A stretch of 64,000 bases of DNA from IMG/VR virus record IMGVR_UViG_2630968933_000007, positions 32,001 to 96,000 of that record; one strand, given 5' to 3'. Source of the DNA: a virus (Duplodnaviria > Heunggongvirae > Uroviricota > Caudoviricetes). Made by a program: the position numbers. Below, piece after piece: positions 3,001-9,000 of the stretch (position 1 is the stretch's first letter; every line of letters begins with the position of its first letter).

Positions 3001-6000
3001 GACGAAGCCCCTCATGGAAAAGAACTCTGGCAGGCACTGAACTCAGGTCAATATGGTCAAATCGCGCCGTATACTCAACCGGAAGATGCGGTGGAAAAAG
3101 CCAGACAACAGAAAATTAATGAGATCAACGCCTGGCGTAATGCGATGGAAGCGGCGAACTACACGTTTGAGCACAATGGGCGTAAATGGGACTACGGGAA
3201 GTCAACGCAGACGCGTCTTGAGCCGTCGGTGGCTGCCGCGAAAGCAGGAATACTGCCGGAGGGTTTTTTCTGGACGGATGCGGAGAATAACGACGTCCCG
3301 ATGACGGCTGGGGAGCTGATGGCACTCAGTGAGGCGGCGGAGAAGGCGATGTTCACCAAAGGGATGGAAATTCATGTCAGACAGCGCACGATGAAAAAAG
3401 AGATTGAAGCGCTGGGTGATGCGGAAGCTATACTGGCGTATAAGGTCGGCATGGCTGACAGGTGAAAAAAAGAGGGGCGCTCCAGCCCCTTGCTACAAAG
3501 CTATGGCTAAATAAAGAATACTCAGGTCGAGGAAATAATCTGGCAATGATAATTAAAGGAGATGCAACGGCCTCCTTCACCCCTGTCAAAGATAAAAAAC
3601 TGGGGAGTGCGTGCTCCCCGAGAGCATGATACTTGTGGTTGATAGTTATTTTTATCCGGCGACAAAGATATTGAGATGAGGGCGCGGATGCAATACAGAA
3701 TTTTCGTATTGCATGGTAACTGCTGATTCCTGAAACTGAAAGTCGTCATGAAACTGTAAGCGAAAAAACGGGGAGACGGCACGCTCCCCAAGGTCATACA
3801 TGAGATAGTGGTGTTTTTATAGTCGAAAGAATAATTGCATAAAAAGAGTGTAAATTAAACATTCAGGGGATACAGAATTTTCGTAGGCTGAGGGATTGCT
3901 GAAAATAATTTAGTGCGTCCTTCAATGGTCATTCAATGGTCATCAGATTGTGCTGATGTAAACAGTTAAGCACAATTTGATTATTTGACTTTCTTCTTTT
4001 TGTGACTAACTTCACAATTAAAGATGTAACCGTATACAAATTGTTGATGAATAAAGAGACAGAATAAGTGGCAGGCCAGTCGTAATGCGGATATCCCTTC
4101 GCGGACGTGATATCACCGACGTTATAGTAAGGAAATTCCGAAAAACTTCATATTAAAATTCGGAATTTCTTCAGGAGTAAGCTCATGAGAGCGGCGAGAC
4201 ATCAGATTTTCTTTATATATCCGATGTTGAACTGTTTTATTTGTATACAGATAATTTTATAGGGTATACCACATGAGCAAGAAATTTACAAAGACTATTC
4301 TTTCATCTGCTGTTGCCGGACTGATGCTGGTGAGTTCTGGGGCCATGGCTTTAGATATCCCAGTTAAAGGCAGCGATTACATCGTAAAATTTTACAAGGA
4401 TGGGGAAGGTGCCAAGATAGTAGACGCACAAGGAAAAGAGGTTTTAGGTGCTATTAATACAACAACAGGAAGCATCATGGCCTTTAATGAAAAGGAGTTT
4501 ACTAATTTTTTAGCAACACACGGAAAAACACTTGATAAAAGTAAAATGCAGGATTATTTAAATTCTATTGCGTATCCTGTCTACTTACCTGAGTTAAAGC
4601 TGGAAAATATTAAAAAGTTAAAGGGTACAGACGTTGAAAAAATAAAAAAAGTTAAGGATGATGTATCCAAGATTATTACCTCCAAAACCGCGGCCGATTA
4701 TAACCAGGCTGTAAAAAATGGTATGAGTTCTGAAGCTGCACTGACTGTAGCTAAAGATGGTGGTGCAGTCTTAAAAGAATTCAACCGAATTGATTCGGAT
4801 ATCGACCAACTGAATAAAGAGACAACTTTTGCGCTTGATGCCGATGGCAATATCACGCTGGATGAAAATCAGGGAAGCGGTGAGCGTTATTCTGTAAAAC
4901 AAACAGTCGCAGATATTAAGGCTGACACTACTGTCTACCAGAATAAAGATGGCAGCTATACACTTGACCAGAGCGCACCGGGCAACGTTCGTGTGAATGA
5001 TGCTGTTGTCAGCCTCGACAACAGAACCCGCAGTAACACCCAGGCTATCCAGAATCACTCCCGCCAGCTGCAGGAGCATAACGCACGCCTGAACAGCCAG
5101 CAGCGCCAGATTCGTGAAAACCACGAAGAAATGAAACGTGCGGCAGCACAGAGTGCGGCGCTGTCCGGTCTGTTCCAGCCGTACAGTGTGGGTAAATTCA
5201 ACGCCACGGCAGCCCTGGGTGGTTACAGTGACAAACAGGCTGTGGCTGTTGGTGTGGGTTACCGCTTCAACGAGCAGACCGCAGCCAAAGCAGGTATTGC
5301 GGCCAGCGACGGTGATGTTTCCTACAACGTAGGTGTGAACTTCGAGTTTTAATTGCTGACAGTGACATGAAGCATGACGGCAGGCACAGGAGTTTTGCCT
5401 GCCGTTTTTTTTCATGGGGCATAAAAACAGGAAGGTGCTGCGATGAAGGTAATTCTGGCCACAAGGAACCGCTACCTGGAATATGGCCTGCAGGCGTTAC
5501 TGAAGGAACACAGTGTGATACTGGCGAGGGAGTTTTTCCTGCCGGAGAACCGCCGTTATATCCCGGACTTTGACGAATCCTGGCTGATAATCAGTGATGG
5601 CCTGCTGGGCAGGCTGATGCGGTGTATGTTCCAGGGGCGTCATTTTCTGCAACTGGATGCGGAGTTGCTCCGTGATGGTGAGCAGATAAGTGATGCCATA
5701 CACAACGGCGTCTGGACGTATAACAGTGCTGCCCGCCCGCTGACGATGTCAGAGATGGTGGTGATGTTCGGTTATGTCTACCGCCAGTCGAGACCCTGTC
5801 GCCTTGCCAGTGAAATGGGTATCCACACGAAGACGGTGAATACCTTTCTGTATACGGGAATGGCGAAAAACGGGCTGTATGGTGTGAGCGTCAGACGGCT
5901 TGTTGGTGCCTGATGGCGGTCCTGCCGGATGCGCAGAATCTTCTGATAGTTCAGAAGGTGCAGATGATGAATAAAGAGAGATGCCGGACAATCGGAAGAA

Positions 6001-9000
6001 AACGTTACACCACAGGCGCAATGTGCTTCATGCTGTTTGTGTGGCTTGGTGGTGTGCTGGCTCTTGTTGCTACAGCTGCGGTGGTAATGCAGTAAAAAAA
6101 GGGGAGCAACATGCTCCCCGACCAGAAGAAAGACGTTTGATAACAATTAGTGAGTTGTTACGTCTTGTCCAGAATATCATAGCAACACTCTGTTGCAGTG
6201 ATACCGATCGCGATTTTAGCGAATTCCATCATAAATCCCCTGATTTTTAAGCCTGAAGCAGTCAAAGGAATTTCTATGCCCTATATCGATATCACCACGA
6301 TGCGTGGGATGATGCCGCGCGTTGTGACATCCATGCTGCCCGAGCATTCCGCTGTACTGGCGGAGGACTGCCATTTCCGGTTTGGTGTTATTACACCAGA
6401 ACGTCAGATATCCGGGGTTGAGAAAACATTCACAATTAAGCCAAAAACAATTTTTCATTACCGTGACGATTTCTGGTTTGCATGGTCGGATGTGGTGGAT
6501 GTGATCCGCAGTCCGATCGCTCAGGACCCCCACGGGCGTATTTACTACACTGACGGGCGTTTTCCTAAAGTGACGGATGCGACCATTGCCACAAAAGGGG
6601 ACGGGAATCACCCGACATCATCGTATCGTCTTGGGATCCCCGCGCCGACGACAGCTCCTGTCTGTACTGTCCAGCAGGGCGGTGATGTTTCTGACGATAA
6701 CCCGAATGATGATGAAACCCGGTTTTATACGGAAACCTTTGTCTCAGATTATGGTGAAGAAGGTCCGCCAGGTCCGGCGTCTCTGGAGGTAACACTCCGT
6801 ACTCCGGGAACTGCGGTACAACTGACGCTGGCTCCGGTGCCATTGCAGAATGCCAGTATTAAACGTCGTCGTATTTATCGTTCTGCCTCAGGGGGAGGAG
6901 AAGCCGATTTTTTACTCGTGGCTGAACTGGATGCATCCGTGCTCAGTTACACGGATAAAATACCGGCGAAAAACCTTGGACCTTCGCTGGCGACATGGGA
7001 TTACCTGCCGCCGCCAGAGAATATGACAGGCCTTTGCCTGATGGCTAACGGTATTGCCGCCGGGTTTGCCGGTAATGAAGTGATGTTTTCGGAAGCGTAT
7101 CTGCCGTATGCATGGCCGGAAGTGAATCGTCACACGACGGCAGAAGATATTGTGGCTATCTGTCCGCTCGGAACATCACTGGTGGTGGCGACAAAGGGTG
7201 AGCCTTATTTGTTCAGTGGGGTCTCACCGTCCACAATTTCTGGTTCCAGAATCCCTTCAATGCAGGCGTGTCTGAGCAGGCGGAGTATGGTCGCGATGGA
7301 GGGCTTTGTGCTGTATGCAGGAACAAATGGCCTGGTGTCTGTTGATGCAAACGGTAATGCCGCTCTGGCGACGGAGCAGATTATTTCGCCGGAACAGTGG
7401 CAGAGTCAGTTTAATCCGGCCTCCATTGTGGCTTATCCCTGGCGTGGTGAATACATTGCCTGTTACACGAAACCGGATGGTAAGCAGGATGTGTTTGTCT
7501 TCAACCCGGCAGGTATGGATATCCGCTACCTCAGTACACCTTTTGACTGCGCATGTGTTGACCTGGTTAACGATGTTATGCGGGTGGTATCAGGACAAAA
7601 CATGTCTGCGATCGCCGGAGGGAGTTTGCCGTCGACAATCAGATGGCATTCAAAGGTATTTTCCCTTCCGGAAAGAACCTCTTTTTCCTGTCTCAGGGTG
7701 AAGTCTCCGACGCCAGAGCGGGTGGGAATTACTGTGCTGGCTGATGATGTGCCGGTGATTCACCTTGCACCAGGAAGCTTTTCAGGACGCGTTGTGAGGT
7801 TACCTGCTGCAACCGGGCAAAACTGGCAGATGCTGGTTTCTGGTTTTGGTCAGGTTGAACGTATCACACTCAGTACATCGATGTCGGAGCTGCCGGTATG
7901 ACAAAAAAACCGTGGCGCGCAGGAAAGGATTTATCTGCGGTTGTGGAAAATATGGAGATAGGGACAGGACAACGTGGCGATGGTCGTCATGCTTTTGTAA
8001 CCCGTGAAGAACTGGTCGGTCTGAAGCTGGCCCGTCGCCGGACTTCAGGTGGTGCCGCATATGCCCTTAATCCGGGGATTGAGATGGACAGCTCTGTAAT
8101 GGTCGTTGATTTCCCATCGAAACCTCAGAATTTTAAGGCGACAGGGGGATTTGGCTCGGTACTGCTTGAATGGGATATGCCGAATTATCGCGGTCATTCA
8201 CTGACTGAAATCTGGCGGGGTACGGAGGATGACCTTTCGGATGCGGTGCTGGTTGCCACGACGCCGGGGCAGGTTTACGGTGATCCGGTTGATCCGGGCT
8301 GGTCGGGATTCTACTGGATACGCTTTGTTAATGCAGCGGGAGTGAAAGGGCCATGGAACGCGGTAAAAGGCACTCCCGCACAAACCCAGATAAGCGTTCA
8401 GGCCATTATTGACCAGATCAAGGAGGAGGCTGCAAAGTCACCGGTGGTGGAAGAGCTGCGTAAGGAAATAAAGAATGCTCAGGGGCAGGCAGTAAAGGAC
8501 GCGGCAATCGAGACGACGGAAGTTGTGGGTAATCTCAGGGAAGAAACACTGAAAACTATCGGTGGTATTGATACCCGTGTTACGGGGATGAATAAGTCAA
8601 CCAGTGAAGAGCTTAATAAGGTAAATGAGCGCATCACTAAGGTGGATAAAGAAGGCGGTGAAGCTTTCCTGGCCATGTGGTCAAAAAAGACCGGCGTTGA
8701 GGGAATTACTGCGGGGATCGGAATTGTTGCAGGAAAAGATGGTGAAGGGAAGCCGGTAAGCCAGGTTGCAATTTCGGCATCGCAGTTGTTTGTCTTTGAC
8801 CCGAACAACCCGGATAACACAGCCTATCCCTTTGCGGTGTCAGGTGGAAAAGTTGTTATTCCCAAAGCGATGATTTATGACGCGGTGATTGAAACACTGG
8901 TGTCGCGGAAGGTTGTGGCAGATGAAGTAAAAGCCGGGGCAAGTATCACGTCGCCTGTTATCCGTAGTGCTGTTATTCAGAACGGGAACTTTCAGGTTGA

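Follow-up and report, generated by a model that had tools for sequence, protein, structure and literature searches.

Two groups of prophage small RNAs (sRNAs) come closest to the locus described here. PasB is a Northern-validated, Hfq-dependent prophage sRNA of 83 nucleotides (nt) from enteropathogenic Escherichia coli E2348/69 (Pearl Mizrahi et al., 2021, PMC8550237; Zhu et al., 2026, preprint), and the anti-sRNAs AsxR and AgvB (EcOnc01-03), together with other EcOnc sRNAs, lie at moron sites of enterohaemorrhagic E. coli prophages (Tree et al., 2014, PMC4104026; for the moron concept, Juhala et al., 2000, as cited there). The latter RNAs are convergent or antisense, Hfq-bound and terminator-ended, they sit beside prophage cargo, and their 3′ ends are conserved while their 5′ or middle portions vary. 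The locus in question lies in a 64,000-nt stretch of a caudoviricete virus record (IMGVR_UViG_2630968933_000007, positions 32,001 to 96,000; hereafter the window), in which positions 2872-7901 are a prophage eib cassette within the tail region of a 933W/Sp5-type short-tailed phage. Its rightward order is a DUF4376/ORF-191-like gene, an intergenic region of 807 bp, an eib-type adhesin gene, open reading frame (ORF) 156, ORF-60, an intergenic region of 180 bp and an L0124/ECs1232-like gene. Four elements consisting of an A-run and a G+C-rich hairpin, H1 to H4, are found here. The hairpins are probably unidirectional, leftward Rho-independent terminators at module joints of the rightward late/tail region, and H4 is rather likely to provide an unnamed sRNA of Shiga toxin (Stx) phages, in which the ends are conserved and the middle varies, with its 3′ end and Hfq-binding module.

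What do the hairpins themselves look like? All four had been listed in a preliminary description of the window, and sequence check, terminator scan and motif counts against shuffles find them in place. H1 (3466..3490, minus strand), directly past the DUF4376 stop codon, combines an A-run (3466-3472) with a stem-loop (3473-3490) that on the minus strand reads AGGGGC-UGGAGC-GCCCCU followed by U7. H2 (3594..3619, minus) has its A-run at 3594-3599 and its stem-loop at 3602-3619 (GGGGAG-CACGCA-CUCCCC, then AG-U6), H3 (3763..3790, minus) has them at 3763-3768 and 3769-3790 (GGGGAGCGUGCCGUCUCCCC, then G-U6), and H4 (6094..6119, minus), directly past the ORF-60 stop, at 6094-6100 and 6101-6119 (GGGGAGCA-UGU-UGCUCCCC, then U8). 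Their minus-strand RNA free energies are -11.6, -11.6, -12.5 and -15.4 kcal/mol, respectively, and H2 to H4 fold better than 198-200 of 200 shuffles (z = -3.7 for H2 and -4.2 for H4). The terminator scan adds a fifth, weaker hairpin, Hx (3554..3579, minus; -9.6 kcal/mol), an imperfect stem GAAGGAG...CUCCUU followed by a U-rich tail. For H1 and Hx, shuffling their own G+C-rich sequence gives folds that are just as good. The proposal that all four hairpins belong to one GGGGAG family is borne out for H2, H3 and H4 but not for H1, the stem of which is different in sequence and shares with the others the architecture alone.

The orientation of the hairpins, previously described as that of leftward intrinsic terminators amid rightward genes, is borne out by terminator scans and minus-strand folding. 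H1 to H4 are the four top minus-strand matches of the terminator scan (6119-6101, 3790-3769, 3619-3602 and 3490-3473), which finds 10 terminator-like sites in 2800-6600 compared to 3.5 +/- 1.9 in shuffles; a stricter scan of the full window returns just 25 terminator-like hairpins, with H1 to H4 as a same-strand cluster facing against the local genes. For the leftward reading, a favourable G+C stem-loop and a U-run 3′ of the stem are both present: each stem is followed by 6-8 T on the minus strand and by none on the plus strand. The hairpins share with canonical Rho-independent terminators a G+C stem of 6-8 bp, a loop of 3-8 nt and 6-8 U directly 3′ on the minus strand, but differ in facing against the surrounding genes and in being strictly one-way, whereas the other terminators of the window are of a AAACCCGC...GCGGGTTTTT type and face the same way as their genes. 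The pattern AAAAANNGGGGAG-N3-10-CTCCCC occurs just 3 times in the window (0 times in 100 shuffles). The same stem type is found in two eibC/E-like loci, L021 and L022. There (L022 1426-1453, L021 1414-1441), another leftward GGGGAG-type terminator (ACCGGGGAG...CTCCCCGGT and a T-run) sits within the tail-gene block, where it separates the tail-fibre gene from the rightward ORF that comes next.

Neither the leftward hairpins nor a 16-mer repeat discussed below are annotated in any GenBank, RefSeq or phage record examined; across 3466-3960, RefSeq and phage records hold nothing or merely short hypothetical ORFs. The stem_loop features that GenBank gives for P-EibA and P-EibD were considered as the hairpins and rejected, as they are other features, mapping to window positions 4130-4172 (an AT-rich inverted repeat) and 5376-5406 (the eib terminator). 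A search with Rfam 15 yielded no match at gathering threshold in 3300-6400, and at E <=10 merely two chance-level matches elsewhere in this interval. Short ORFs across 3440-4290 were rejected as genes, with 91-aa and 49-aa minus-strand ORFs crossing the hairpins; a 25-aa ORF (3855-3932) was rejected because it is frame-shifted by a polymorphic 11-bp repeat.

An argument for a function comes from the comparison with other lineages. Every DUF4376 gene inspected is followed, 0-12 nt past its stop codon, by a non-homologous A-run and G-rich hairpin without a downstream T-run, in at least six unrelated downstream contexts (P-EibD, L048, L049, L050, L018 and L022). The homology of these other DUF4376 genes to the window ends at the stop codon, and some of them are the last phage gene ahead of host DNA. 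As the form of the hairpin recurs here without homology in sequence, it argues for a functional element, a leftward terminator that protects the tail-gene block at its 3′ end. A similar picture emerges past the ORF-60 stop, where an A-run and hairpin are present in 4 of 5 lineages despite unrelated DNA to the right. The stem is GGGGAGCA/TGCTCCCC in the window type, Stx2-86 and the Sp5 type, GGGGAGT/ACTCCCC in L006, L007 and L018, some 10 nt past the stop codon of a leftward dinI-like gene, and GGAAG/CTTCC in L025 and L027; these stem differences are compensatory changes. Throughout, the A-run is kept in nearly every instance compared, and a T-run downstream is never present. Within the upstream stack, KY176 and L008 retain the stem of H1 with an altered loop, and in exactly these two loci, in which H2 is weakened, Hx is a perfect 8-bp stem (AAGGAGGC/GCCTCCTT). 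One earlier notion fails in this comparison, namely that the hairpins flank the adhesin locus: H1 goes with the end of DUF4376 and H4 with ORF-60 and the Stx-phage backbone, and since both types occur without eib, the hairpins are not simply flanks of the adhesin.

For H4, a product can be proposed. The 156 bp between H4 and the L0124-like gene (6120..6275, minus strand; fold z = -3.6) would form the body of a leftward, Hfq-bound candidate RNA ending at H4, with a conserved 5′ block (6196-6275) and a variable middle (6120-6195). Stx phages conserve both H4 and this unit. When the window type is compared with the Sp5 type, H4, its A-run and the 80-bp block beside the L0124-like start codon prove near identical, but the intervening 75 bp have strongly diverged. 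The consensus fold of the unit contains 36 predicted pairs, 3 of them with compensatory changes, from merely two truly distinct sequence types. As candidate promoters, we find TTCAGG-18-TATGAT with 8/12 consensus matches in both the window and Sakai, and an extended -10 site with 9/12 in the window type only. The unit also holds a short, possibly coding minus-strand ORF at 6176-6250 (MMEFAKIAIGITATECCYDILDKT) with a Shine-Dalgarno-like AGGGGA. The first 12 codons of this mini-ORF (MMEFAKIAIGIT...) are conserved in Stx phages, with wobble variation at a Gly codon (GGT/GGA/GGC); in the Sp5 type (18 aa) it has another C-terminus, and the varying site is also a wobble position in an alternative plus-strand frame.

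In the Sakai Sp5 prophage, the homologous unit lies at approximately 1287575-1287755 of NC_002695.2, between the ORF-156/ORF-60 remnants (ECs_1230 and following) and ECs_1232. Supplementary Table 1B of Tree et al. (2014, PMC4104026) lists the interval 'ECs1231...ECs1232' at rank 27 among the intergenic regions cross-linked to Hfq (CRAC), with per-sample counts of 81206, 6030, 70478, 146246 and 3140 reads under 'sense' and none under the other heading. Reads of AsxR, the minus-strand position of which we checked in the Sakai sequence, stand likewise under 'sense'. The strand columns were calibrated on further known sRNAs: those on the plus strand in K-12 (spf, ssrA, cyaR, micA and chiX) appear under 'anti-sense', and those on its minus strand (ryhB, sroC and oxyS) under 'sense'. 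The 'sense' column thus denotes the minus strand, which makes the Sakai RNA leftward, and the H4 homologue is the sole leftward terminator in the interval. The ORF-156 remnant at this site (ECs_1230) is decayed and, with that of ORF-60, spans NC_002695.2 1287272-1287576 (L045 25273-25577), without an eib gene. As 933W/Sp5-type Stx phages have ORF-156/ORF-60 remnants but no eib, the block of ORF-156, ORF-60 and H4 is more widespread than the adhesin. Among GTDB species representatives, ORF-156 has one match, a 601-bp contig labelled Xanthomonas pisi (NZ_JPLE01000137.1, L044), which bears an Sp5-type ORF-156 remnant and an H4 unit and is most likely E. coli phage contamination.

The resemblance to the described sRNAs lies in architecture. 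Like H1 and H4, PasB is leftward amid rightward tail genes, and its plus strand shows the stop codon of a tail gene, an A-run and a G+C hairpin (CCCGCAG...CTGCGGG; L080 2254-2300). AsxR, downstream of stx2B, likewise presents a plus-strand A-run and hairpin, and the region homologous to H4 belongs to the same CRAC set. Since PasB and AsxR carry the same signature, the motif that was first noted is how a feature of a known kind appears on the plus strand. However, PasB has a near-consensus promoter (11/12 matches, as opposed to 8-9/12 for the units of the window) and is experimentally validated, and it has no sequence similarity to the window region, where the PasB probe sequence was not found either. 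The AsxR/AgvB/EcOnc RNAs lie downstream of stx or Q rather than in the tail region, and no sequence or Rfam match connects them to the window elements. Identity with Pas sRNAs was rejected altogether, as PasA, PasC and PasD are in the Q/lysis region and PasB is unrelated in sequence. The preliminary suggestion that the hairpins may belong to small RNAs is supported for H4, by the minus-strand Hfq-CRAC reads in Sakai Sp5 and the PasB and AsxR precedents, but not for the upstream units, where leftward promoters reach at most 8-9/12 and, in some loci, H3 is broken or H2 carries a mismatch.

How would such hairpins act? A rightward polymerase would meet a hairpin without a U-tract and pass, and a leftward one would transcribe a G+C stem with 6-8 U right behind it and stop. 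H1, backed up by Hx, H2 and H3, would in this way block antisense transcription into the tail-fibre genes, by transcripts that begin within the AT-rich control region of eib or to the right of it; H2 and H3 may end a leftward transcript from this control region. The conserved leftward unit that H4 would end, about 75-160 nt long, lies in the gap that separates ORF-60 from the L0124-like gene. The two roles, insulation and provision of an sRNA 3′ end, would be compatible with each other. That the transcripts stopped by H1, Hx, H2 and H3 are functional sRNAs in their own right is unlikely.

Several points weigh against this account of leftward terminators and an H4-ended sRNA. Termination in the source strain, the promoters and any regulatory targets are inferred, and leftward promoter candidates overall do not exceed 9/12 consensus matches, compared to 11/12 for PasB. 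In P-EibA, ORF-60 is followed by a different hairpin without an A-run. A C-to-A change introduces one mismatch into the stem of H2 in KY176 and L008, L006, L007 and L008 have lost the stem of H3, and the segment 3691-3806, which includes H3 and one copy of the 16-mer, is absent from P-EibA, KY176, L011 and L014. With H3 broken in three loci, the second unit gone in four and a mismatch in H2 in two, selection on each single hairpin is not strict. With regard to H4, the Sakai unit is approximately 82% identical to that of the window, and the reads are assigned to H4 by their interval rather than by mapped ends, as the old coordinates of ECs1231 are not recoverable from phage records. In addition, the Sakai RNA has no EcOnc name in Table S2 of Tree et al., and ECs1231 is not mentioned in the paper texts searched. 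For the upstream stack, its redundancy and the dispensability of single members fit back-up terminators better than indispensable sRNA genes.

The 807-bp intergenic region carries a second conspicuous feature, a repeat. As previously described, the 16-mer ATACAGAATTTTCGTA occurs exactly twice, as copy A at 3693-3708, inside a palindrome with 8-bp arms (TGCAATAC-N9-GTATTGCA, 3689..3713) that came up in repeat search and sequence inspection, and as copy B at 3870-3885, which is invariant in all loci with this upstream module. In IMG/VR, the 16-mer was found in eib loci only, apart from single chance matches. The two diverged repeat units of about 130 bp, within which these copies were said to lie, survive in part: four short blocks, namely the hairpin, GATAGT..TTTTTAT, the 16-mer and GATT(C/G)CTGAAA, are collinear in units A and B at offsets of 163-177 bp, but the period is 170-177 bp and the similarity of the spacers is marginal, since beyond hairpin and 16-mer the local alignment has z ~2 and is equalled in 30-32 of 500 shuffles. 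H2 and H3 probably go back to a single terminator, copied by a segmental duplication of about 170-177 bp in the eibA-type module only; loci with one unit differ from those with two by an out-of-register indel of 116 bp. The whole module (3466-3960) is present in 27 of 5,426 complete E. coli genomes, always with eib and without partial matches elsewhere.

To the right of the repeats lies the eib control region, with a G+C content of 33-40%. Approximately 300 bp upstream of the eib start, a palindrome with 13-bp arms (ATCAGATTGTGCT-N14-AGCACAATTTGAT, 3942..3981), conserved in all eibA-type loci, looks like a candidate operator for a dimeric regulator. It is overlapped by the best leftward sigma70-like site (4008 to 3980), at which leftward transcripts that would terminate at H3 and H2 could conceivably begin. 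Immediately before it, at 3921-3942, an 11-bp sequence (TTCAATGGTCA) is tandemly duplicated, and is present as a single copy in P-EibA, KY176, L006 and L008. The AT-rich inverted repeat at 4130-4172 (GGAAATTCCGAA...TTCGGAATTTC), about 100 bp upstream of eib and identical to the GenBank stem_loop mentioned above, has an AAAATTC/GAATTTT motif in common with the 16-mer.

Could H2 and H3, with their 16-mers, instead represent two paralogous leftward sRNA genes of the Hfq type, of some 110-210 nt and divergent from the eib control region? Their terminator and U-tail architecture is identical to that of PasB and AsxR, the minus-strand fold of unit A stands out (z = -3.2), the loci do not vary in the 16-mer or its right flank, and the best leftward promoter-like site overlaps the operator-like palindrome. 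However, we find no canonical promoter at sRNA distance in units A and B (at best <=8/12 consensus matches, with 11/12 for the PasB control), the fold of unit B does not stand out from shuffles (z = -1.3), H3 is decayed in three loci and its unit is missing in four, as listed above, and the module, restricted to 27 genomes, has no Rfam match, all of which renders this pair of genes doubtful. A different objection to active terminators is that the hairpins are passive leftovers, either terminators of leftward cargo genes that were lost or scars of modular recombination. The decay of H3 and the mismatch in H2 in some loci, the dispensability of the second unit and the breaks in phage-to-phage homology near the hairpins would all be expected of relics, and the H4 equivalent in L006, L007 and L018 serves a present-day leftward gene, the dinI-like one. 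Relics would not, however, be expected to arise independently, as non-homologous hairpins, at the same place past DUF4376 in at least six contexts, nor to undergo compensatory stem changes after ORF-60; moreover, H4 is conserved amid diverging neighbouring sequence, and an Hfq-bound RNA has been reported at the homologous site in Sakai. We therefore consider an origin as leftovers improbable.

Still less do the data suggest a plus-strand role for the hairpins, as stabilizers of mRNA 3′ ends, processing barriers or weak rightward terminators, with the A-run being incidental. H1 and H4 do start just a few bases away from rightward stop codons, and a hairpin stays with ORF-60 despite its changed right neighbour, but the A-run is conserved nearly everywhere and the downstream T-run nowhere, H2, Hx and H3 follow no rightward ORF, and the true rightward terminator of eib, with its U8 tail, is very different; plus-strand action is thus very improbable. 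Finally, a stem of GGGGAG/CTCCCC in several places, including L022 1426-1453, might suggest copies of a small mobile or repetitive element (repetitive extragenic palindromic (REP) sequences or bacterial interspersed mosaic elements (BIME), enterobacterial repetitive intergenic consensus (ERIC) or miniature inverted-repeat transposable element (MITE)-like sequences), or binding sites for a protein or recombinase. With flanks of H2, H3 and H4 that are no more alike than by chance, just 3 copies in 64 kb, an upstream module found solely with eib and without partial matches elsewhere, and neither target duplications nor terminal repeats, this can hardly be credited. For the conserved A-run and the lack of a T-run downstream, leftward termination is a better explanation than any of these alternatives.

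The genes around the hairpins conform to a published system. Our cassette is 92-95% identical in DNA sequence to those of P-EibA and P-EibD (GenBank AF151091 and AF151675; Sandt & Hill), and the eib records (AF151091, AF151674-6) show the same order of ORF-191/DUF4376, eib, ORF-156 and ORF-60, as cargo with its own terminator. The final tail gene ahead of the cassette (2872..3465, plus strand) encodes a DUF4376, ORF-191-like and tail-fibre-assembly-like protein (Pfam DUF4376, E = 1e-19), and is annotated likewise in homologous records. The adhesin gene (4273..5352, plus; 359 aa) encodes an eib-type trimeric autotransporter (Pfam YadA_anchor, E = 4.6e-16; homologous records) and is followed by a rightward terminator with an 11-bp stem and U8 (5376..5414, plus; -19.4 kcal/mol), which is found by the strict scan and corresponds, at 5376-5406, to the stem_loop annotated in GenBank 3′ of eibA and eibD. 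ORF-156 (5443-5913, plus) and ORF-60 (5913-6095, plus) are taken from the ORF list and homologous records; a Pfam search with their proteins gave no match. The right neighbour of the H4 unit, with its ATG at 6276, is the L0124/ECs1232-like tail gene (6276..7901, plus), assigned by homologous records and comparison with Sakai, where ECs1232 is essential for Sp5 morphogenesis (PMC5155283). The adhesin gene thus lies as cargo amid conserved phage genes, has a terminator of its own (5376-5406) and is missing from related phages, as the interval from the tail-fibre gene to the L0124-like gene holds other content or mere remnants of ORF-156 and ORF-60 in Stx2-86 and Sakai Sp5. The idea of a separate moron cassette therefore stands, and the adhesin block is well supported as the separately terminated cargo already published as the eib cassette. 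A single plus-strand promoter-like site (4227-4255, 9/12 consensus matches) is found upstream of eib, and as 168 bp of upstream sequence are enough for eibG function on a plasmid (PMC13534694), the hairpins lie outside the minimal eib promoter. Elsewhere in the window, Rfam matches at gathering level point to further prophage cargo, at 26392-26477, 26926-27014, 42451-42502, 47079-47250, 54096-54488 and 56998-57383; they comprise two sRNA-Xcc1 and a DicF on the minus strand, and a sok and two cspA thermoregulator 5′ untranslated regions on the plus strand.

What would follow for phage and adhesin biology? If the sRNA ending at H4 is confirmed, an unnamed Hfq-bound RNA of most 933W/Sp5-type Stx phages, encoded beside an essential tail gene, would join the prophage sRNAs. 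For eib, the proximal control region can be separated from an upstream stack of backward-facing terminators, which probably shields the tail-fibre genes from antisense transcription. A tentative and rather unlikely extension would combine a widely distributed H4 sRNA family, in which the 5′ block and the terminator are conserved and the 'seed' middle can be swapped, head-to-head with ECs1232/L0124, with one or two leftward sRNAs from the eibA-type module, divergent from the adhesin via the palindrome at 3942-3981. If this were true, expression of the adhesin or activation by IbrAB would be coupled to post-transcriptional control of host or phage genes. The main by-product of our analysis is a pointer to the uncharacterized Hfq-bound RNA adjoining ECs1232 in Stx phages. 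Current concepts remain unchanged but extend to a new locus, as backward terminators and sRNA 3′ ends at the cargo junctions of prophages are already known. For annotation, a practical rule emerges, by which a rightward stop codon followed by an A-run and a G+C hairpin marks a leftward terminator and often the 3′ end of an sRNA; PasB, AsxR and the elements of the window all obey it.

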